Of a stretch of DNA of 64,000 bases, positions 593 through 50,955 are shown piece by piece. Source of the DNA: Alloascoidea hylecoeti. Lineage: Eukaryota. The DNA is taken from assembly GCA_001600815.1 (NCBI GenBank), contig BCKZ01000022.1:1-64000 (forward strand), in the 5' to 3' direction. Position 1 is the first letter of the stretch. Each line of letters begins with the position of its first letter. The translations under genes and the position numbers were made by a program. Under the pieces are notes generated by a model that was given only the letters and a program-made list of their open reading frames with translations, ran no database searches and was not told the origin of the DNA.

Positions 593-998
593 CTACTACT
601 AAAAAAAACTTGCTATACGAGATTGCTATAGTAGATAGAAGACTATAAAAAGAGTACGTAGATATTCCCTTTTAATAAAACTTAACGGCTAGCGCTGGTC
701 AACTACAAAATTGGTGTCGAAAGATATTTAAAATTTGAAACTTATAAATATTATTAGTCTTTTACAATAAAAGCTATAACAAAAGTACCTTTCTGATCAT
801 AAGTAATTGTACAAATTGATCTCTTAGAAAAATGGAAACGATTATAAGCTTTACGTATGCATCGAATGTAAGCTAATACAGAGTTTTATAGCTACATCGA
901 TTGCAACTTTTAAAAACGGCGAAAGAGTGAAACATTTAATGTAGTATTTGTAAGTTAACTATATAACACAATTTTAAATTTGATAATAACCTTTATGA

Positions 999-1553
999 TT
1001 AATGGGCTTTGGTTAAGTACTCATCGTTAAAAGTATAATCATATTTTTTCTCTTCTTTAGGATCAATAATATTAGCATCACTTGCTAAGCTTGATGATCT
1101 TCTATTGCGGGTACCTCGTTCATTGATACTTGGTAATTGATCTGATCCTTTAACCGATGATTTCCTCCTATTTAGCAATACATCTTCTGATTCACCGATA
1201 TCGTCGGGATTTTTTGCAACACCGATTCCAGGAATTTTTGAAGCACTTGATCGTGAATTCGGATCAAATTCATGAATGTTTTCAGGTAGCTCTTTTTGTG
1301 AAATGAAAGGTTTACCATCAAATTTATAATCAACCCCGTTTTCTTCGTCATAAGATAAAATTGAATCAACACCTGGTGAATTCGGTGAATCATTTGTACT
1401 TGGCGGCAAACTGAACCCAGCAGCGACAGATGGTCTTCTTTCGGACCTTATTGATCTAGAACGGTTTGGTTTATCGATTATAGGGACTGTGTTATCATCT
1501 GGATGAACGGAACTTGGACGACGTAGGCCATTTGAATTATTGGTTGGGGTCAT
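999..1553 (-). CDS. Hypothetical hydrophilic, probably disordered protein with several RRxS (PKA-type) motifs
   Basis: Clean ATG-to-stop ORF of 184 aa containing RRPSS, RRPSV, RRKSS and RRSSS. No recognised domain. Confidence 0.7.
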   Translation of the reverse strand: MTPTNNSNGLRRPSSVHPDDNTVPIIDKPNRSRSIRSERRPSVAAGFSLPPSTNDSPNSPGVDSILSYDEENGVDYKFDGKPFISQKELPENIHEFDPNSRSSASKIPGIGVAKNPDDIGESEDVLLNRRKSSVKGSDQLPSINERGTRNRRSSSLASDANIIDPKEEKKYDYTFNDEYLTKAH

Positions 1554-1730
1554 TTTTCTAAATCTTAAAGAAATATGAATATAAATTAGATGGATTGATT
1601 AATATTAATGTTATACCATAATTAGTAACTCGTAAACGCGTATAATTACGTAGTGGTCAATTCCGTCACGATGCATTTAATTTATCTTTCCTTATTTGAT
1701 TTTATGCATATGCAGCAGAACTGTTTTTTT

Positions 1731-2642
1731 TTAACCAAAACCAGACCACTCAATCGAAAAGCATACCATTTCTTGATCAACTTCATTATTGAGTATTTTC
1801 TCTTCATTACCTTTCAGTATCCTTTTGGCACCTATTAACCATAATTTCTTAACAGCAGTTCCTAATCTTGCTCCTCCTACAATATCTAACACTTTAATAT
1901 CTTCATCCCAACCATATCTATTCACAATCTGATGAGAATAATACCTCAATGGATCTCCAGGGTATGATATAAATTGTCCACCAAATCTTAACCCAGAAGA
2001 TGAAGAACAACCCAATGAATATAAATATTTGAATATATCATATGATTCTGCTGTTGGATGTTGCCATTTTGTTATTCTTCTTTGTTTGGCTTCAGCTGAT
2101 CCGTATTGTGATTGAAATAAATTAAAGTTTGGTAAAAACTCGGTAGTTGGCTCTATAACATATGATATAGCAGCTTGTAATGTATATTTATCTGTTTTCT
2201 TCTCTATATTTGTAGCAACTTCATTACTGGAAGTCTCATTTTCATTTTTTGTTGAATCAGTTTTCTTATCTTTCTTAACATGAATTTTCCTTTTAATTGA
2301 TTGGGTCTCCATATATTGCTTAACCTGAACATCCCAAACTTCTTGTTTCTTAGTTTTAATATATTCTAAATCTTCCTTAGATAATAAACTAGATATAGTT
2401 TCATGTAATTCAAAATCAATAATAACATAAGCAACTTTTAATTCAATAACCAATAAATATATTTCTTCTGACATTAATTCAACAGGTAATCCTAAAAAAA
2501 TGTTTTGTTGTGGTACAGATGGTAATGTACCAGTATTTGTACCATAGATATGATATTTACATCTTAATGTTTTAAGATCTGACAATGAAAATATAAATCC
2601 TCGGGTTCCAATGATATGAATTGGAATTAATACTTCATTTAT
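1731..2642 (-). pseudogene. SEN34: tRNA-splicing endonuclease subunit Sen34, probably a defective copy
   Basis: Motifs GTLPSVPQQNIFLGLPVEL, GLRFGG-F--YPGDPLR and ARLGTAVKKLW. Homology continues upstream of the ORF-track TTG start (NEVLIPIHIIGTRGFIF) with no in-frame ATG: ATA at 2640-2642, then a TAA near 2670. The catalytic-His position reads TAT (1938-1940). Confidence 0.8.
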
Positions 2643-3191
2643 TGTTATTTGATCTTCTCTTTTTAAATTTTATTTTCTATTTTGTTGGTTAACAACAATT
2701 TGAAAAACATCCGGTTAATTAAATAGATCTACAGAAGTTAATATCGACCATTTGATGATACATTCGCCCACAAAATTTATACGTATAGCCTATATGAATC
2801 AGGTAAATTGCCATTAAGGATAAATAATGAAAACCTCTCATTAATTATGACAATACGTTTTTTCATTCACAATTCATGTTAAGATCTAGGTATTTTGAAA
2901 AATAATATTTCATCTTTCTTCTTGTATGTACTATCTTTTACAATTGGATATTCATCTTTTCCTTAGGACCTATAGCTCGTTTCATTCAATATATCATCCT
3001 CCTAAATATAATTTACGTAGAAATATTAAAAGACAAGAAATCTCTATAAACTAATTAAAGTTTTTTTGGTCGTCCTCTGGAACTCAAGAAATTCAAATTG
3101 GAAATTCGGAATTGTGTGTATTCAATCAATCTAATTTTGATTTAGCGAAAAATACAATTCAGAAATATTTATTATATAGCTATGCTATTAT

Positions 3192-5174
3192 TTATTTATA
3201 AATTGGAATATTGACAAAATATTTACCAATAAAAACAAAATCCAATTTATTATCAACGATTAAAGTTTGAAGCAAATCTTTACCTGGTATTTCAATAAAT
3301 CTCCATTTTTCAATTTCAATATCATAAAGTATAAGATATTCGATACGTTCAACATCCAAAATTACATCATCAAATGGATCAATATTATCTCCAAGGTAAT
3401 ATTGAACTTTTAATGCTATATTATTATTATTCCAAAAGTATGGATAAACTCTGATTCCCTGTATTTCAAAATTAGGATATTTAATGTCTATTGAAGGTTT
3501 AAGTGTATCAATTTTAGGAGTTTCCAATATAACTTTCCAATCGTAATTATCGTAATTATTATCATTATCATACAAATTAAAGTTATAGCTTTTATCTGAT
3601 GTATCTAAAAATATTGAATTAAAAGATTCAACATTAATTTTTAAATTATCTTCAATATTGTTATCATTGTTAATCATATTTAAAAATTTTATAATTGGAA
3701 TCCATAATAATTGAAAGTTATCAACACGTTTGTAATTATGCATATTTTTCCAAATATAATTAATTTGAAATAAATTTGAACCAATCATGATAATTTGAGG
3801 AAAAAAGAGATGGGTATTGTTTGTAAAAGTGTCAAGTAGCAGTTCCATTCGAAATCTTTGTATCCCATGCCAATAGGTATTTAAATCATAATTGATTTTA
3901 TAGTTACCCAAATATTCACCATTTGTAGTTCTGAATATTAACCAGAAGTAATTATTATAACCAGCTTGTACTTCATAATAACTACATATCATTATTGGGA
4001 TTAAAGTATAAAAATCTGATACTTGGATTTTTAAAAAAGTTGGAATTGATAAAAACTCTTCAACTTCAAGATCATCAGACCTTATTTGCTTCTTTTTCAA
4101 TTGAATTTTAACCTGCCAAACCATTGTTGATTGTAATTTGTTATCCACATCACTATTTTTCTTATAACAATTTAAAATTATAGGTCTTGATGGATAATTA
4201 TAATTTGGAACATTAGTTGATATTAGATATTTTCCAGCAGTATTATCATTAATTTTTAAAAATTTCTCAGGTGTGAATAAATCTCCGTATTGCAATGCAT
4301 TAGAATTTTTTTCTCGTTGTTTTCTTTTTTTATAAAGGATGTTAAATAATATAGGATCATAAAATTTTTTATTACAATTCCAAGGTGATGGTTCTGAATA
4401 TAATTTCTCATGAAAATTTACTGGTAATCTCCAATTACTATAATTATTAACAGTTGTTTCAGATTCCATGGANATTGTATTTTCCCAATTAAATTGATTT
4501 AAAGGTTTATTAATTAATGCANAAGTTTGTGGGAATTTTGAATATAATTTATTGATAGATNTATTTGATTTTGAATCGGATTGAAAATAAACACTTGAGA
4601 CACCANTATNACTGGACCAGTCATTGATTAATGGAATTATTTGNATCACACATTCATCATCAATATCATTTTCATTTATATTATCGTCNTTCTCAATGAT
4701 AGTATTTTCAATAGATGATAAATCAAAAAGTCCAACAACTGGGTAGTTTAAAGAACTACAATCATAGTACTCTTGGTTGGTTAGAATGGGGTATTCAGTC
4801 GCCCCATANCTATCANNANAATTCNGAANAACTTTATTTTGCCATAGAGTGAATGGTACTTTTTCGTTATGGATTTCTTTAAAAATTGGTACTTCAAGTA
4901 TATCAGGATCAAATAAATTCACGATCTTAACATCTCCATTGTTTAAATTCTTGATCATTTCTTTATGTTTGTTTTTCAATGATTTGATGGATTTTCTTTG
5001 ATTTCCTTTAGTGAAAGAATCCAGTATAACAGTAGCATATTGTTTATTACTATAGTTCTGTTTATACAAGGTGAAAAGGAGTTTACATGTCTTGAAGAAT
5101 CTGAATGCATCTACTGGAGTAAGCTTCTCTGTGATAAGAATGATGGTCTCTTCAGGTAGATTTATGATTTGCAT
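3192..5174 (-). CDS. F-box protein, lineage-specific C-terminus
   Basis: N-terminal F-box signature IINLPEETIILITEKLTPVDAFRFFKTCKLL in a 660 aa ORF. Scattered N bases at about 4470-4830. Confidence 0.8.
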   Translation of the reverse strand: MQIINLPEETIILITEKLTPVDAFRFFKTCKLLFTLYKQNYSNKQYATVILDSFTKGNQRKSIKSLKNKHKEMIKNLNNGDVKIVNLFDPDILEVPIFKEIHNEKVPFTLWQNKVXXNXXDXYGATEYPILTNQEYYDCSSLNYPVVGLFDLSSIENTIIEXDDNINENDIDDECVXQIIPLINDWSSXXGVSSVYFQSDSKSNXSINKLYSKFPQTXALINKPLNQFNWENTXSMESETTVNNYSNWRLPVNFHEKLYSEPSPWNCNKKFYDPILFNILYKKRKQREKNSNALQYGDLFTPEKFLKINDNTAGKYLISTNVPNYNYPSRPIILNCYKKNSDVDNKLQSTMVWQVKIQLKKKQIRSDDLEVEEFLSIPTFLKIQVSDFYTLIPIMICSYYEVQAGYNNYFWLIFRTTNGEYLGNYKINYDLNTYWHGIQRFRMELLLDTFTNNTHLFFPQIIMIGSNLFQINYIWKNMHNYKRVDNFQLLWIPIIKFLNMINNDNNIEDNLKINVESFNSIFLDTSDKSYNFNLYDNDNNYDNYDWKVILETPKIDTLKPSIDIKYPNFEIQGIRVYPYFWNNNNIALKVQYYLGDNIDPFDDVILDVERIEYLILYDIEIEKWRFIEIPGKDLLQTLIVDNKLDFVFIGKYFVNIPIYK

Positions 5175-6739
5175 GATGGTTAGAATTCAGAATCTAGGGC
5201 CTACCTCCTTAGTATAACACTATTGACTTACTAGTATCTAGTAAAAACTCTTTACCTAACTATAGTAGTATTTATGTTGGAGTTTAGAGAGATATAAATA
5301 TTTAAAGGGAATTTATAATTGGCTTGAGTTAACATTAGTTTTTTTGACTAATAATGATACATTTATTCCACTTAATGTAGGCCATGCTGGTTACTAATTA
5401 TCGGCAGGATTATCGCCTGTATGAGTTCGTAATACTCTCCGTTAATTAATATGCAGGGGTATGGAACAACTTCTGCCAAACCAGGGCGAACTCATGAAGA
5501 ATGATCGAAATTAAGTAGATCAATTGTCAAAACCCCAATCCAATTCCTTATTCAATGACCAATCCAGTCATATTACCTTTCGATATGTGACAGAATGCAT
5601 TAAAAATGGTGTTAGACTCTTTATTATTCTTGCTTACACTAAAAAGAAGTTGAATAAGCTTGCAATTGTAACAAATCACATCAAGGGGAAACTTGATTAT
5701 CTCAGATGTCCACCACATTGCTCTCTTCTTGGAATAAGAAAAGAATGTAAAATAACTGATTGACTATAATTAGATGAATGTTCAGATGTAAACTACAAAT
5801 CTATATAAATGTCTATTTTTCTACTTTTTCTATAATACATATAAATTCAAAGAAAAATACATTTAAGGAGTCATATCATTATAGTAAAAGTTGTATAGCA
5901 ACATACTTAAATCTTATATATTTTGAAAGATATATAACAGATCACATTTATATCTTATAGGACACAAATAATGATGATAAATTAAATACTATCTATTATT
6001 ACATATTTAACGGCGTTCTTGAAGTTTAAGAATTGGTTAACAGACACCTTAACGTATACAGTTTTGGTATCGAGTTTACTATCTTATTGAACTATCAGTC
6101 TTTATGGTTATATGGAATCATTTTTAATCTGAATTTGAACATTCAAATATATCAAGCTACAAAAAGAGAGCGTGTATAGTTATTCATCTAATATTAATTA
6201 TTTGTTTTGTTTATTATCGGTACTATCAATTAGATGCAACATTAAATACCTTTAGCTTTAGTTGCGTAGTCAGTACTGGCGAATATCTAGTGTATTATGT
6301 GCTGGAATATTTAGCCTAATAATTGGCCTAAAGTAAGTGGAAACACAGCATCTTTATTTCCTTACAACCCCATGGAAGAAATCTCACACTACAAACATAA
6401 AATACAAAAAGAAAATTTTGAATAATGATTATGAATAACGATATTGAGTGGATTTTATTGGAAGTACATATGTATAATATTTTATCTTCGTTGCTGGTTT
6501 ATAATTAGTTGCTGCAACAGAACAATGGGGATCTGGGTATGCTGAGCTTAAGCACTAACTCGTCCGACTATGCCATCTACGGTATAGGTGTTTAAAATGA
6601 TGTAGAATTATTAAAGGAGATGTATGCTATATAAGAGAGTTTGTACTTGAGATTGAAAAAAATGAAGCGAGGAATTTTATTCTAAATGATAAAACAGTAT
6701 GTAAAAATTAAGTACAATCAACTAAAATTCCAGATTGTT

Positions 6740-8140
6740 TTAACCAATATCTTTTAACAATTTCACCAGTTCACCTTCTGTAAAAATATTTTCAATATCA
6801 TTTCGATCTTGACTCATTACTGAGGCTGTTGTTTTCATTGATACAAGTGCGACTTTTTTTCTAAATTCTGGTGAATTAATAATTATCTCAGCAATTGTAC
6901 TCTGTTCTCTTAATCTTAAATTTTTTTGAAATGGTGCTTCAGTATCCCAATATTGGAGAACATGTTGAGTAAACTCAGATCTTCGAAAAAAGGTCTCCCC
7001 TGTATTAATTTCGTAATCATCTTGACCAAATATGAAATCCATATTATAAATATCTTCATCTGTTATTTCTGGAATTGGTGGGTAATCTTTTGGATCCAAT
7101 CCAACTGATTCCATCAAACTTTCTGAATTATAGAACTCATTTTCTCCATCTTCAACTGGCCATGGAGCAAGGCCATATATTTGACCTACATAACTTTGTC
7201 GATCTCTAACAAATGGCTTGAAATACGATAACCTATTCTTTAAAGCCTTTGGATGCAATAAATATTCGGCAAGGTCAACTTCATAATCCATGATAATAAC
7301 ATCAATATCTAATAAATAGACCCATTCAACATCTGGGAAATCATCAAACACTCTTCTTAAAGCTTTTATTTTGCTCCAATATTTTTCTCTATCACTTGGA
7401 ATATCAATATATGTTAAATTATACCATGCATTAATGTAACCATGATAATCACAATATTCTTGTCTATTTTGATAGACTTGCTCAAACATATTTGGTTGTT
7501 TACTACCTCTGCCATCAGTTGATGATAAAATTGCAATTTTTGCACCTGATGGTTCTAATTTCCCAGTTTTGGGGTCTAAATCTTTATCGGTGAATTGAAC
7601 AGGTATCAAATTTCTTAAAAAATCTCTTAAAACAGCCCTTCTATTAATTCTATCAAATTTAAACTTTTTGGACATTTCATAATCATTACCCTGTTTACTT
7701 GCAATTTCAGCTTCTTTTTTCATTATCGGTGTACATTTCATTCTCAGTTGCAAAAAATTCTGTTGAGGAGGAAGAGAATGATTCCATTTTCCGAACATAT
7801 ACATCATTATCCCTAAACACAGAAATGCCAGAATAAATTTCACTAAAACAATAGTATAAAATACCAATCGATAAGAAAACCGATATGAATGGTGGTATTT
7901 TCCTAATGTTAGCTGTAGTTAAATTATTTTTGAAAACATTTGCAGATTTTGTATAACTATGAACATAGTTATTTGCAACTTGTAATATCATTACTGTTAT
8001 CGCGATCAATTGTAATTAATCTCACCAAGAAAGATAAACCGGAAATTGTCATTAATCTGCAGATTAATAGGATAATTGTATGATTATGATTATATAATGG
8101 TTGAAAAAGAGAAATAGTATTATTCTTTGTTAATTATTAT
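6740..8140 (-). pseudogene. 5' and central part of a GT34 paralog; internally deleted, frameshifted, 3'-truncated
   Basis: About 6789-7724 appears identical to 10221-11156. About 7725-8140 is a diverged match to 11410-11860, including upstream sequence. The N-terminal ORF (7707-8009) is out of frame with the catalytic part. Homology stops at ...IFTEGE. Confidence 0.88.
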
Positions 8141-9856
8141 CTCAAAAATTCTGTAAGACTGTTGTATTGTTTTAATATGGAAAGGTATAATATAGCGGAG
8201 TTGGTTATTTAGGTTGGGATAGGGTTAATACATAAATTGACGACCTAACAGTTATATTTGTGTCTCTACATTAGACTGGTCCATTACTAAGTTTATAGCA
8301 TAGTAGCTAATAGTATGAAGTTTTACACTATAAGAAAGATTAGATTATATAAAAGAGTAAATTATCCTATCTAAATGGGATATCAGTCAAATTACTATTC
8401 ATAAGTTATTATTATTCATTTTCATCAATTCATTTCTGCTATAGTTAATACCTAACATTTATTACCACAAGACCAATATATATTCTTACTCCTATACGCG
8501 TATAGTACGCCATATGCTCTAACGATATGATTCATCAGGTTTGTTTCATAAACAAGTGCAACAGAAACCTAATACATAATAATAATATTAAAGTTATTTA
8601 TTTAGGATGGGATTGGTTTAATCTATGAATTAATGGCATATCAGATATTTAAATTTGTGTTATATAAGTTTCCTGAGTAGTAATAGCATAAGTAAAATTA
8701 GACTATAAGATATTATAGAAAGTAGATATGGTATCCCAATATAAATAAAAATCATTAACTAATTATAACAGTTCCAAGAGGAAAATTTTAGATCTTATTT
8801 TCTTTCTATGGTTCGCGTTAGTTACAATAAGCAACTTGAAAGAGAATCAAAAAACTTTCAATAACCCTCGCGGAAAAAGTAACCACACGTACATCACCAA
8901 AATCACTTCCATATACATATTAAAGACAATAGAAGATAGATAAATGGCAAACTTGAATCCTGTCGTTTCAAATTAATTCTTGAAATTCTCTGTCAAATTA
9001 TTTGTCCCTTTTTCTTAACTGTGTAGGACTCCATACTTCCCTGCCTTACAAATATAGTTATTATGATTCTTAAATAGATGAATGCATGCATATGTATGCT
9101 GGTATATTTCCGTATGCAATATGTACAGTTGCAGTTGCATATATATATTCTCAGGAGACAAAATTGAAAGTTAGTATAATTATAAACTATGTACCGATTA
9201 TAATATAATTTAAGTGTACAAGTTTTATACGGAAGTTTGATATATTTATATTTTGCTTCAACTATCTATTCCCTATCATCACTATCGTCATTCTTTAATT
9301 CTTCAACATAGAACGTGGAGGTCCAACCTTGAGGATTGGGCACATATACCATAATAACAATGGTCACACATAAGAAAATGTCGCTTTAAGTTTGAATGTA
9401 GTCCCAAATATTTTACTATTTATATGCATAAGAGCATATGTAGCTTTTTTAAGAGCTCTAAATTTTACAAGTATAAAGCTTAAGAAACAGCGGTGTATAC
9501 GGTATACATATATGTAATGTTTTTCAGAAATTGTCATAAACACATATGGATTTACATTTGGCCTCCTTTTCTCGGGTTCACTAAAAAATTAAGTAGTATT
9601 ATAAATGGGAATTATATGAACATCATTTATAACAGATTCATTCAATTCAACACGGTAATGAACTATTCGCTTTATAGATATATGTCTTATGGATTTATTT
9701 CGTCAAATACTAATTATATTATTAAATGATAAGCTAGAACGTTCCTTATTTTTTACAAAGTACATGTTATTATTTCCAAAAGAAAAGAACGTTACAATTA
9801 TGTATGAACTCGCTGATTTTAATTTTAATTCTTTCTTTAATTTGTATGACAATTGA

Positions 9857-11716
9857 TTATCGATCAATTATATCTTTGAGATATCCATATTTATCTTCAA
9901 TCTCCTTTTCTTGTTTACCTCTATATTTTATTTTTCTATTGGTCCATTCATTTAACTCAAAAAGATTGATTTTATTGAAATTCCTTTCCGATTTTTCTAA
10001 AGGTTTAATCTGTTCTGGAGTTATGGTCTCTTCTTGTCTCATTTCTTTCCAAAATGCCGGCTCAGTCCATCCTTGAGGTGCTCGGATTTCAGGCACCCCA
10101 CTCTTTCTGAATTCTTCTGGGACCCTTTTTCTATGACTCCATAATCTATTCCATTGACCAGGGCCACGATTTCCTGGATATCCTGCAAAATGAATGATAA
10201 AATCACCTTCTGAAAAATTGTTTTCAATATCATTTCGATCTTGACTCATTACTGAGGCTGTTGTTTTCATTGATACAAGTGCGACTTTTTTTCTAAATTC
10301 TGGTGAATTAATAATTATCTCAGCAATTGTACTCTGTTCTCTTAATCTTAAATTTTTTTGAAATGGTGCTTCAGTATCCCAATATTGGAGAACATGTTGA
10401 GTAAACTCAGATCTTCGAAAAAAGGTCTCCCCTGTATTAATTTCGTAATCATCTTGACCAAATATGAAATCCATATTATAAATATCTTCATCTGTTATTT
10501 CTGGAATTGGTGGGTAATCTTTTGGATCCAATCCAACTGATTCCATCAAACTTTCTGAATTATAGAACTCATTTTCTCCATCTTCAACTGGCCATGGAGC
10601 AAGGCCATATATTTGACCTACATAACTTTGTCGATCTCTAACAAATGGCTTGAAATACGATAACCTATTCTTTAAAGCCTTTGGATGCAATAAATATTCG
10701 GCAAGGTCAACTTCATAATCCATGATAATAACATCAATATCTAATAAATAGACCCATTCAACATCTGGGAAATCATCAAACACTCTTCTTAAAGCTTTTA
10801 TTTTGCTCCAATATTTTTCTCTATCACTTGGAATATCAATATATGTTAAATTATACCATGCATTAATGTAACCATGATAATCACAATATTCTTGTCTATT
10901 TTGATAGACTTGCTCAAACATATTTGGTTGTTTACTACCTCTGCCATCAGTTGATGATAAAATTGCAATTTTTGCACCTGATGGTTCTAATTTCCCAGTT
11001 TTGGGGTCTAAATCTTTATCGGTGAATTGAACAGGTATCAAATTTCTTAAAAAATCTCTTAAAACAGCCCTTCTATTAATTCTATCAAATTTAAACTTTT
11101 TGGACATTTCATAATCATTACCCTGTTTACTTGCAATTTCAGCTTCTTTTTTCATTTTATTGATTTGATTTTCAAGAAAATGGTCTAATTGAGCTTCTTC
11201 CTCAAAAGTCATAACTAAATTATTTTTGATTTCTGCAAGTGTATCAGGAAGAATATAATCATATATTGGATCTCTGAAATATGTTGCATATAATTCTGTT
11301 ATATTTACAATTGATTCCTCTGAAATTGCATGATATTTTGATTTTGTTAACGGATGATTTAAGTCTTTAATATTTTCGACTTGCAATTGATTTAACTTCG
11401 ATTTTTTATTATCTGCATCTAATTCCATTTCAAAAGATTTTGTTGAAGAGGAAGAGTGATTTCTATAAGATGCAGGTTCAGTTCTAGATCTCGGTATACC
11501 ATTATTTCTAAAATCAGAAATGTCAGAATAAGCGTCACTAAAATAATAGGATATAACACCAATGAATAAGAAAACCAATATAAATGATGCTAAAAATAAA
11601 TAATAGGCATATGGTCTTTTCTTAGCTGTAGATAAATTATGTTTGAAAAAGTTTCCAAAATTTTTATAACTATGAACATAGTTATCTGCAATCGGTAACA
11701 TCATTACTGTTATCAC
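9857..11716 (-). CDS. GT34-family (Mnn10/Mnn11/Gma12-like) Golgi glycosyltransferase, type II membrane protein
   Basis: N-terminal transmembrane segment, NRQEYCDYHGY, WSKIKAL, WVYLLDIDVII (DxD), INTG and GDFIIHFAG. The true start is probably one of the two adjacent ATGs near 11704. Confidence 0.9.
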   Translation of the reverse strand: MITVMMLPIADNYVHSYKNFGNFFKHNLSTAKKRPYAYYLFLASFILVFLFIGVISYYFSDAYSDISDFRNNGIPRSRTEPASYRNHSSSSTKSFEMELDADNKKSKLNQLQVENIKDLNHPLTKSKYHAISEESIVNITELYATYFRDPIYDYILPDTLAEIKNNLVMTFEEEAQLDHFLENQINKMKKEAEIASKQGNDYEMSKKFKFDRINRRAVLRDFLRNLIPVQFTDKDLDPKTGKLEPSGAKIAILSSTDGRGSKQPNMFEQVYQNRQEYCDYHGYINAWYNLTYIDIPSDREKYWSKIKALRRVFDDFPDVEWVYLLDIDVIIMDYEVDLAEYLLHPKALKNRLSYFKPFVRDRQSYVGQIYGLAPWPVEDGENEFYNSESLMESVGLDPKDYPPIPEITDEDIYNMDFIFGQDDYEINTGETFFRRSEFTQHVLQYWDTEAPFQKNLRLREQSTIAEIIINSPEFRKKVALVSMKTTASVMSQDRNDIENNFSEGDFIIHFAGYPGNRGPGQWNRLWSHRKRVPEEFRKSGVPEIRAPQGWTEPAFWKEMRQEETITPEQIKPLEKSERNFNKINLFELNEWTNRKIKYRGKQEKEIEDKYGYLKDIIDR

Positions 11717-29200: not shown

Positions 29201-32200
29201 CTCCCCCGAAATTGAAAAATCATAATGATTGAGAAATTTTAAAATATGTGAATAATACTGGATAAATTTGATATAATTCATAAATTTAAAGTAATAAAAA
29301 CATATCAAATTGCTTAATACTCGAACATGAATATAACAAATCTTCAAAATACAATCCAATCGTAGTATCTTGATTTTTAGATGTAAAAATACAATTTTCT
29401 CCTATAATTGAATTAAATGCTTTTTCTTTTAAGTACTTAGAAATATTTCGATGCCAATTTACGCTTGCCTGAGGTAATCCATAGGTGTATCTGCCGAGCA
29501 ACCAACAATGATTTTTGGATGTACTAAAACCTTGTGGTTCTCGACAGATAATAACGTCTTTGTTGTTGACTTCTGCATTAAGATATGCGTTTTGAAAGTC
29601 GATGTGGAAAATAACATGTTTCTTAATTATTGCATTTACTAAGCATCTAAAAGATTGTAAATTTAAAACAGGAGAGTAAAAATTTGGTTTTAGATCAATA
29701 TATTCTTTACCCTTTTTTAACATATCTCCTCGTAGTACCAACCTTGCCTTGAATTTGGTTACAAATTTGTTAGACAGGTCCTTTTTGAGTGCAAAATCCC
29801 ACATTGTATTGATGGGTTTACATCCTAAATTTTGTAGTTCAGAAGTATCAATTACTTGAAAGACATTCATGTGTCGAAAAACTTGTATTTCAGATTCCAT
29901 CGCATTCTGCCAAAATGCATGAAATGGATTATTAATATTAATAGCTTCAGTATAAGATGACGGAATTTGTACATCAGTAACTTTAATTTTTTTACCATCA
30001 TAATACGGTAATTTTCCATATTCAGAAACTTCATCTATTTCTTTACTCTGTTGATCATCAGATTTCAAAATGGTTAATGCAATTTTATGAGGTTTTCCTT
30101 CTTTAAAGAATATTCGAAACATTTTAATTTTGCGTTTTTTCTTTTCCTTCCTTTTCATATCGTCAATCTTATCTTCTTCATCCAATTTTCTTTTATTTTT
30201 ATTTATGGTATTAAGATTTTCAACTTCAGTATTATCAATTGTAACTAAATCATCATCATTTATTTTTGATGTAGTTTCTTGAATATTTTGATTGGAATCT
30301 TCATGATTATGCCATTAATATTCTTTATTAAATTCTTCTTCAGTTAGAATATCATTCATACTTGATGCATTAATATTTTTATTATGAATATTTTCTTCTA
30401 TAATTAATTCATTTTTATCCGAATCTATCACTTCAGTAAATTTACTATTTTCATCAACAATTATAGAATTTTGTGTTAGCTCAGAATTTTTATTATCCAT
30501 TTGCTTAGTAATTTGATTATCCTTATCATGAATATCATTATTTTGGGCGGTTTCAATATGTCCACTTTTCTGAGTAATATGATCATGATCTGATTCAACT
30601 TCAACAGTTTCAATATGTTTAACACCATGATCAATATTTGGTTCAATACCAACAGTTTCAATTGGTTTCATACTCTGATCAACATTTGTATTAACATTTT
30701 GTTTACTAATATTTTTATTAGAGTCAATATCTTTATTTTTAAATTTCTTAGTAATTTTTGTATTGTCTGAATCATTATTAACAGATATCAATTTTGGTTT
30801 CACATTTGTCAATTTATCTCTTTAGGTTTATCGGATAATTTATCTTGACTAACATTAGGTTGCTCAATAATTTTTTGTTTTTACTTTATCATTGTCTAAA
30901 TCACTTGTTGAAATATTACTTTCTTTTTCAAGTTGAGTATCATTCATATCAATATCCATGGATGTGGACTCTGTAATTGGAGATATAATTATTTGTGATT
31001 GTTGATATCCTTCATTTACTTCCAAACTATTCAACAAATTTGAAGATGAATATTCATTATTGCTTGTGGATGTTTTGATTCCTTTCAATTTTTCTATCTT
31101 GTTTTTTAATAATTTTAATTCTTCTGGAAGGAGAAATGTTGCTGACAGTTTGACATCTCTGGAAAATACAATTTCGTATTTTTCTAAGTCCATGCATGTA
31201 AATCCAGACTTATTTGTTGAGATACCTAAAACAATAACTTTGAGTCTCTTTCTATTATCCAATGATTTTTTTGATTTTTTTCTTAACACCTTAGGATTTA
31301 CCATGCAACCTATAGATCCGAATATGGGTAATGAATTTGCGTTGAAAGCCATTTCATGCAATGCAAAATAGGGTGACGTCTGAATGGTATTGTGATATAT
31401 AGCATTATATATGTTTGTTCAATGCATAATCCCAAAATACCTCTGGTATTCCAGATGATATGAGCATATTTGTTAATAACTGTTTTACCGTTTTAACTGC
31501 ACGTTCAGCAATACTATTCTGTTGTGGAGTATAATTATAAGAAGCTTAATTTTATTCCCATCTCCCAAAGTTGTTTTCTCATAGCTATAATATCAGTACC
31601 ATTATCGGAATGTGCTTCTTGAATTTTTTTTCCCAGAATTCTTTCTAAATATAGTAAATTTGGTTTAAATATGTTCATTAAATTTTTCGAATTATTTATT
31701 GATAGTGATCAAAGAACGAATATTTTGTTCTACAATTAAGAGAAACTTTGTGTTATTTCTTATACTTGTACCAAATCCAAATCCAATGTCTATTTGAAGG
31801 ATTCTTTCAATAGCATCATTCTTTCTTTTTCATTGTTCCCTTAAATGATTCACGGGCAGAGTGAGAAACAGCACATGTCTCACATTCTTTTTGAGTAATC
31901 TTCTTATTTTGTGTTACTAAGACACTAGCTTCAATACTTTTACATATTTTTAAAGCACTGGTATGAGCAAGCCGTTGATGTAGTTCCTCAAAATTTACAT
32001 CATTCAAATCTTCATTTAACTTATCATCAATTTTTTTATTGTTAATCACTAACAAGGAAGTTATTGTCAAATTTGCATTTATATCAGTCCTTATTATAGG
32101 TGATTTTTTTTAAAATATAATTGTTGTTTATTTTTTCAGCAATAACAACATCCGTCTTATTTTCAGGTGTGATCATTTGTACTACTCCATTACCAAGTTG

Positions 32201-50704: not shown

Positions 50705-50955
50705 AGATTGGCCTTTTGATCCTCCTATTTGTCCTGTTACCATGTTTAATATTGTTCCATATATAGCTTCTTGTACATTAAATCATCTTGAACCTATGAT
50801 TTTTTCATTATTATCTGNTAATATATGTAATCCTAAAATTACGAATAATATTGTTATTATTAGATATAAACTAAAATTTGTAAAATTAACTGCACTTAAA
50901 TTAAAAAAAGGTGCTTATTTCAAACTGATCTAAAGGAGATAATATATGTCATATA
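50705..50955 (-). pseudogene. ATP6: NUMT: 5' part of mitochondrial atp6
   Basis: SPLDQFEI...NFTNFSLYLIIT...NNEKIIGSR(TGA=W)FNVQEAIYGTILNMVTGQIGG. The in-frame TGA sits at the conserved Trp, and ATA codons are frequent. Confidence 0.92.

Follow-up and report, generated by a model that had tools for sequence, protein, structure and literature searches.

Introduction

The tRNA splicing endonuclease (TSEN) is regarded as essential in eukaryotes, and its Sen34 subunit is the one that cuts the 3′ splice site. The catalytic histidine is the residue that is mutated when the enzyme is to be killed. The S. cerevisiae mutant sen34-H242A is reportedly viable; our search of the literature for H242A returned nothing, and the viability of this mutant is not used as evidence here.

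For human TSEN34, the H255A change is reported to abolish 3′-site cleavage in vitro (bioRxiv 10.1101/2020.08.03.234229), and H255F is described as making an inactive complex that still binds pre-tRNA (bioRxiv 10.1101/2022.09.03.506465). The histidine of the archaeal endonuclease is a proposed general acid that is also said to stack on the bulge base (PMC2761253). In S. cerevisiae, SEN34 is reported to be essential even when spliced tRNAs are supplied (PMC5824351), and both TSEN and tRNA introns were thought to be universal until a report on a nematode in 2025 (PMC12530127). With regard to initiation at codons other than ATG in S. cerevisiae, values of ~20% (ATA) and ~50% (ATT) of ATG initiation are given for the ALA1 context, and ATA is described as having essentially no initiator activity in that of GRS1 (PMC2909995).

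Here we describe a SEN34 ortholog from the yeast Alloascoidea hylecoeti. None of the strains sampled has an AUG start codon for this gene, and most of them carry tyrosine at the position of the catalytic histidine. The gene resides in a 64,000-nucleotide stretch of DNA (hereafter ‘the window’). A sequence-only reading of this stretch had proposed that the gene is dead, and that it is a decaying duplicate carried within an inserted block.

Results

A SEN34 ortholog with tyrosine at the catalytic histidine position

The minus strand of the window carries an open frame of 313 codons in a region of ~25-31% GC, where values across the window range from 23 to 39%. Read from an ATA codon at 2642, the frame comprises 303 codons (1731..2642, minus strand; stop codon at 1733-1731) and contains ...GQFISYPGDPLRYYSHQIV..., with TAT at 1940-1938. 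This open reading frame is an ortholog of SEN34/TSEN34, as evident by its family, sequence and fold matches. Residues 199-270 match the tRNA-intron endonuclease catalytic domain (PF01974) with a score of 34.8 bits (curated cut-off, 27), and the best PDB sequence matches are human TSEN34 chains (E=2.4e-19), which align with residues 6-270 and cover both domains. An alignment of 49 sequences was used to build an AlphaFold model (mean pLDDT 76.2, pTM 0.70), which has confident N- and C-terminal domains joined by a disordered linker at residues 139-177. When this model was compared with the PDB by Foldseek, the top five matches were TSEN34 chains (E 5.6e-12 to 9.8e-10), with archaeal EndA and TSEN2 ranking behind; the TSEN2 chains reached E values of at least 2.4e-3, which places the protein with Sen34 rather than with Sen2. 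Its nearest named relatives are the Sen34 proteins of Geotrichum/Galactomyces reessii and Sugiyamaella lignohabitans, at ~40-42% identity, which places this AT-rich budding yeast near those lineages and on a long branch.

The signature motif of the catalytic domain reads YPGDPLRYYSH, compared to YPGDPLRFHAH in human TSEN34, such that Tyr235 (TAT, 1938..1940), located eight residues past the triad tyrosine, faces the histidine of RFHAH (human His255). The other two members of the Tyr-His-Lys triad are retained, namely Tyr227 (TAC, 1962..1964) and Lys266 (AAA, 1845..1847), whose columns hold Y and K, respectively, in 158 of 159 database homologs aligned with MAFFT. In the same alignment, column 235 is H in 157 proteins and Y only in the record that we call P0001; the remaining protein is truncated and has a gap here. 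P0001 is a record from the same species that is 99% identical to the window protein, and its exclusion leaves 158 other homologs for comparison. The proposed loss of the catalytic histidine to tyrosine is therefore confirmed, since TAT at 1940-1938 aligns with human His255 and 157 of the 158 other homologs have histidine. Orthologs with tyrosine at this position, which the earlier reading had named, in combination with a spliced upstream ATG, as evidence that would speak against it, were not found: the one homolog among the 158 that lacks histidine has the gap. The PDB chain 7zrz carries F at the aligned position, which corresponds to the engineered inactive H255F.

Assignment of the gene to its family stands on orthology, and catalysis by the tyrosine allele is putative. 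Given the reported stacking of the archaeal histidine on the bulge base (PMC2761253), an aromatic tyrosine could still serve in this role, and its hydroxyl group could in principle act as a proton donor.

Histidine and tyrosine alleles segregate within the species

Logan contigs from sequencing runs X1, X2, X3 and X5 were placed on positions 1000-3600 of the window. Runs X1, X2 and X3 come from three studies, with X3 being derived from an isolate and X2 from a metagenome; X5 has no coverage at 1940. An X1 contig spanning 1592-2212 (621 nt) carries TAT and has no differences from the window, and an X2 contig spanning 1517-2212 carries TAT and differs only at 1919. An X3 contig that accounts for a depth of 69.8 of 136.1 has G, C and G on the plus strand at 1889, 1919 and 1940, respectively, and the change at 1940 converts TAT to CAT, which encodes histidine. 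The full triad is absent from the window allele, with tyrosine present in the window, P0001, X1 and X2, and with histidine found on one X3 haplotype.

Because TAT and CAT occur at approximately 1:1 on linked haplotypes in X3, this site represents a His/Tyr polymorphism within the species. The haplotypes over 1889, 1919 and 1940 are A-T-A in X1, A-C-A in X2, and both A-T-A and G-C-G in X3, a pattern that looks like alleles recombining in a population and not like fixed differences between paralogs. Run X1 exhibits a 1:1 bubble at 2183-2300 (6.6 + 7.6 versus a collapsed depth of ~13) and no bubble at 1940. Since X1 is heterozygous at the former site and uniform at the latter, both of its haplotypes appear to encode tyrosine. 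The X3 bubble branches sum to 136-160, versus 93-102 in collapsed contigs, and ploidy is unreadable from these depths.

The proposed start site was likewise evaluated, and contigs from X1 and X3 that span 2586-2796 show no differences from the window, which confirms ATA at 2642-2640. The absence of any variant at these nucleotides in X3 means that its histidine haplotype also lacks an ATG, and therefore the missing ATG is no marker of a dead copy. The earlier reading had recommended a check of the raw reads at 1940 and 2640. The contigs reproduce TAT and ATA, no ATG appears at the start site, and CAT is also present at 1940 on one X3 haplotype. It is exceedingly improbable that sequencing or assembly errors at 1940, at 2640 or at both have created the unusual letters, as these recur in contigs of X1, X2 and X3, which stem from three studies, and P0001, an independent protein record, agrees.

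The reading frame offers no AUG for a full-length protein

The frame is closed upstream by an in-frame TAA (2670..2672), and no in-frame ATG occurs between this stop codon (2672-2670) and the codon for Met57 at 2474. The claim that SEN34 has no start codon within a frame closed upstream is therefore upheld, with ATA at 2642-2640 located where the start would fit and with the first ATG at Met57 (2472..2474). This ATA (2640..2642) has A at -3. A second in-frame ATA (2646..2648) has C at -3, and ATT, ATT, ATC and ATT codons lie downstream at 2627-2612. An out-of-frame ATG opens a three-codon reading frame (MKY-stop, 2627..2638) that overlaps the putative first codons.

Translation from Met57 would be one way to explain this arrangement, and would yield a 247-residue protein without the N-terminal domain. 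This ATG is the first in frame; however, three out-of-frame ATGs (2638, 2562 and 2545) precede it, and the sequence upstream of Met57 (2475..2627) encodes part of a conserved domain. All eight near-invariant residues located before Met57 (R27, G34, G38, P41, Q46, G51, P53 and L56) are kept, residues 1-30 have pLDDT values of 85-94, and the region is confidently modelled as two strands and one helix of the N-terminal domain. Because these 56 codons are conserved and their product is predicted to fold, initiation at Met57 would cut away part of that domain, and we judge this route to be improbable.

Alternatively, a short upstream exon spliced onto the frame between 2669 and 2630 might supply the start codon. 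A scan of the 550-bp upstream region found 35 in-frame combinations of ATG, GT and AG, and branch-like TTAAC and TATTAAC motifs are present. However, none of the combinations has a canonical donor (GTGAAT, GTATTG, GTATAA, GTCCTA and similar sequences are used instead), and the acceptor would need to skip earlier AGs. Ortholog N-termini match the frame as it stands, without a break. Those of the two nearest orthologs read M-IPI, compared to L-IPI in the window protein, and show no sign of an extra exon; other orthologs have N-terminal extensions of up to ~30 residues. A spliced upstream ATG, which the earlier reading had named as one part of a finding that would overturn its view, gains little from the scan because all of the donors are weak, and we hold such an exon to be quite unlikely.

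The P0001 protein begins at the TTG codon of ...SLSDL and differs from the window protein by F77S. This start is consistent with an independent assembly that likewise offered no upstream ATG. P0001 (260 aa) stops at ...KGN (~1806), 24 codons before the stop codon in the window, and lacks the invariant EW motif. One X2 contig (8.5 of 15.4 depth) gains three bases directly behind the ATA at 2642-2640 and loses one base at 2660, and when translated by hand still has no in-frame ATG.

Two other routes to a start codon were considered and rejected. A ribosome that initiates at ATG 2638 cannot be brought into the gene frame, as evident by hand-worked translations in which a +1 shift at the stop codon enters the third frame and in which no -1 slippery site is present. 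An altered genetic code in which ATA specifies methionine is contradicted by an ATA codon internal to the reading frame, which aligns with I, L or V in orthologs (FISYPGD versus FLAYPGD).

SEN34 resides in a block inserted into an MNN10-family gene

Positions 593..6770 form a 6178-bp block that contains SEN34, an open reading frame at 999-1553 and another at 3192-5174. The latter two have no family matches, and ORF 3192-5174 (660 aa) has no Pfam match. An intact MNN10/GMA12-family paralog at 9854-11156 serves as the reference for the flanks of this block. Its segment 9854-10201 matches 244-592 at 88.7% identity, its segment 10203-11156 matches 6771-7724 at 99.7% over 954 bp, and the two breakpoints abut. 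The interrupted gene therefore comprises 6771-7724, which is the part upstream of the breakpoint, and an orphaned 3′ fragment at 244-592. These comparisons demonstrate that the block was inserted precisely into a second MNN10-family copy, and so the proposal that SEN34 arrived as part of an insertion was correct. No terminal repeats of the block and no other copy of it were found within the window.

The 11% divergence of the orphaned fragment suggests that the insertion is much older than the ~3% variation within the species. The 99.7% identity on one side of the block, in contrast to 88.7% on the other, suggests that gene conversion has acted on the larger fragment and that it ended at the breakpoint.

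Several additional features of the window were observed. The region 3131-3600, which includes the 3′ end and downstream flank of ORF 3192-5174, looks multi-copy, with an X3 depth of 349 at 3349-3435 (versus ~93 nearby), many loose ends and two skipping joints. There are 14 N letters, of which 13 (eleven single letters and one NN pair) fall at 4473-4829 within ORF 3192-5174 and one at 50818; heterozygous sites that were masked or left ambiguous may account for them. Two short reading frames at 29286-31352 contain pieces of a copia-type retroelement, with RVT_2 and retroviral SH3-like domains.

Searches for a second SEN34 copy

Among 5.8 billion clusters formed at 90%, P0001 alone exceeded 35% identity to the window protein. 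A search for shorter homologs that might be allele fragments gave 41 candidates, none of which passed, and an exhaustive phmmer search of 1.84 billion representatives gave no paralog candidate among its best 150 matches. Those AT-rich-looking phmmer matches that were looked up proved to be from other named species or long Logan contigs. A scan of JGI metagenomes with the SEN34 protein produced 92 pattern matches, none of them confirmed.

The depth of SEN34 approximates that of the neighbouring ORF 999-1553 (13 versus 12.6 in X1, and ~93 versus 102 in X3), which speaks against a near-identical extra copy. Within the protein collections searched and the depths observed, we infer that SEN34 is a single-copy gene.

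Contigs of X1 and X3 match the window rightwards from position 1598, but the sequence to their left is another one, which occurs nowhere in the window. A short repeat or a structural variant may be responsible, or the partial match may be spurious (85% threshold). The same position was also considered as the edge of a second copy, but an X3 contig runs unbroken over 1303-1888 and the depth is not doubled.

Conservation and relaxation of the SEN34 sequence

We defined near-invariant positions as columns in which conservation across the 158 other homologs reaches 90% or more. The window protein keeps 29 of 32 such residues, among them Tyr227 and Lys266 of the triad and each of the ten that fall within the N-terminal domain. 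The three broken columns are P216S, H235Y and G258A, which puts the window protein among the worst 8 of 158, and its haplotype additionally has C212 and S213 where homologs show Y and F/Y.

No indels are among the differences from the window listed for 1731-2637 in the four sequencing runs, and six are listed for 2638-3286, including a pair adjoining the ATA with a net change of +3 nt. Among the 13 coding differences listed, from a table that comprises 15 further rows, 9 are nonsynonymous and 4 synonymous, whereas those listed for the neighbouring ORF 999-1553 give a ratio of 5:6. The 9:4 ratio among listed differences is compatible with neutrality (P=0.27); an omega of 0.1 is rejected (P=0.002), but omega values of at least 0.3 are not. 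For five of the nine listed nonsynonymous differences (Y33C, C212Y, S213Y, Y235H and R242G), the alternative allele is the family consensus, and therefore the window haplotype carries several derived changes.

These data bear on the idea that SEN34 is under relaxed constraint and decaying, either because a second functional copy, related to the block by duplication, resides elsewhere, or because the role of Sen34 has become dispensable. The latter could occur if the species had few or no tRNA introns, or if some other nuclease made the 3′ cut. The absence of an AUG from every dataset, the loss of an invariant histidine on most haplotypes, the further substitutions at conserved positions, the compatibility of the listed 9:4 ratio with neutrality (5:6 in the neighbour) and the location of the gene within a 6.2-kb inserted block are all in keeping with decay, and the nematode Levipalatum texanum is reported to have lost both tRNA introns and TSEN (PMC12530127). 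However, the frame is open, with no stops or indels among the differences listed for the coding sequence in four runs, and the ten N-terminal near-invariant residues and two of three triad residues persist. Moreover, protein searches gave no paralog, depth speaks against a near-identical extra copy, the insertion (dated by the 11% divergence of 244-592) is much older than the variation within the species, and the reported essentiality of SEN34 in S. cerevisiae extends to cells supplied with spliced tRNAs (PMC5824351). On balance, we consider decay to be possible but rather unlikely.

The hallmarks of a processed or decaying pseudogene, which are stops, frameshifts and widespread loss of conserved residues, were not found in SEN34. 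The claim that the gene is a decaying duplicate is therefore unsupported, given that no second protein was found, that the variation behaves as allelic, that the frame is open and that 29 of 32 near-invariant residues are kept.

Discussion

The existence of isolates that appear to have only the tyrosine allele, despite the reported essentiality of SEN34 in S. cerevisiae, is most simply explained by a functional gene with a near-cognate start and a tolerated allele that is probably hypomorphic. We give about an even chance to the specific reading in which this is the sole SEN34 of the species, is translated from a near-cognate codon and carries a tolerated, hypomorphic active-site allele. Under this proposal, the window gene would be the working, and probably the only, SEN34. 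Initiation would most likely occur within the cluster of near-cognate codons just ahead of the conserved motif IPIH, where ATA 2642 is favoured owing to the A at -3, and would give full-length Sen34 at low abundance. The change of histidine to tyrosine at the general-acid position probably weakens cleavage at the 3′ splice site but would keep the protein fold, assembly of the complex and aromatic stacking on the substrate base, and would be tolerated even in homozygotes. The initiation codon, the residual activity and the single-copy status are the parts of this proposal that we infer.

Certain facts weigh against it. Histidine is present in all 157 other homologs that cover the column, and H255A and H255F are reported to be inactive in human TSEN34. 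The three broken near-invariant columns, the C212 and S213 residues, the listed 9:4 ratio and the location of the gene within an inserted block likewise count against this reading. In addition, an out-of-frame AUG begins 4 nt after the ATA, and the published GRS1 data describe ATA as essentially inactive in that context (PMC2909995). A further proposition, which we advance tentatively and place on the doubtful side, is that a sole, AUG-less SEN34 either makes the 3′ cut with a Tyr-Tyr-Lys active site or is on its way to a structural role, with cleavage at the 3′ splice site achieved in some other manner.

A wild yeast with both His and Tyr alleles, and with Tyr/Tyr isolates, constitutes a natural experiment on how much 3′-site activity is needed and on which functions of Sen34 are structural. 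If the tentative proposition above is true, this yeast would provide the first example in nature of a eukaryotic TSEN whose triad is altered, and the His/Tyr polymorphism would be available for study in living strains. Likewise, an AUG-less ortholog of an essential gene would, if true, clearly exemplify near-cognate initiation that is obligate. The finding shrinks to an ordinary decaying duplicate if a second SEN34 copy is present.

Comparisons with known systems help to define what is unusual about this gene. It resembles S. cerevisiae Sen34 and human TSEN34 in its two domains, YPGDPLR..SH motif, catalytic tyrosine and lysine, C-terminal EW and overall fold, but differs from them by having tyrosine in place of the general-acid histidine on most haplotypes, no AUG, the P216S and G258A changes and, on the window haplotype, C212/S213. 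The human H255A and H255F proteins are altered at the same position, and H255F is likewise aromatic and reportedly retains pre-tRNA binding. Those laboratory mutants are reported as inactive in vitro, whereas the change described here is a natural allele for which viable isolates are apparently homozygous.

Subunits that have the endonuclease fold but a solely structural role are described for archaeal (alpha-beta)2 enzymes, and a related precedent for eukaryotes that have only one kind of catalytic subunit (PMC10485636). In the window protein, by contrast, two of three triad residues persist, the catalytic-domain motif is complete, and a histidine allele segregates alongside it. A more distant analogy is provided by metal-independent RNA endonucleases, some of which are reported to function without a catalytic histidine, such as Sulfolobus Cas6 (PMC5965381).

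With regard to translation, the ACG of ALA1 and the UUG of GRS1 illustrate how translation could begin at a near-cognate codon when the leader is A-rich (PMC2909995). In those genes the non-AUG isoform is described as being made beside an AUG one, whereas the putative near-cognate start of SEN34 would be the only route to the full-length protein. Finally, L. texanum, which is reported to have neither tRNA introns nor TSEN (PMC12530127), indicates that TSEN can be dispensable in a eukaryote. The nematode has lost the genes outright, whereas in this yeast an intact SEN34 reading frame persists.
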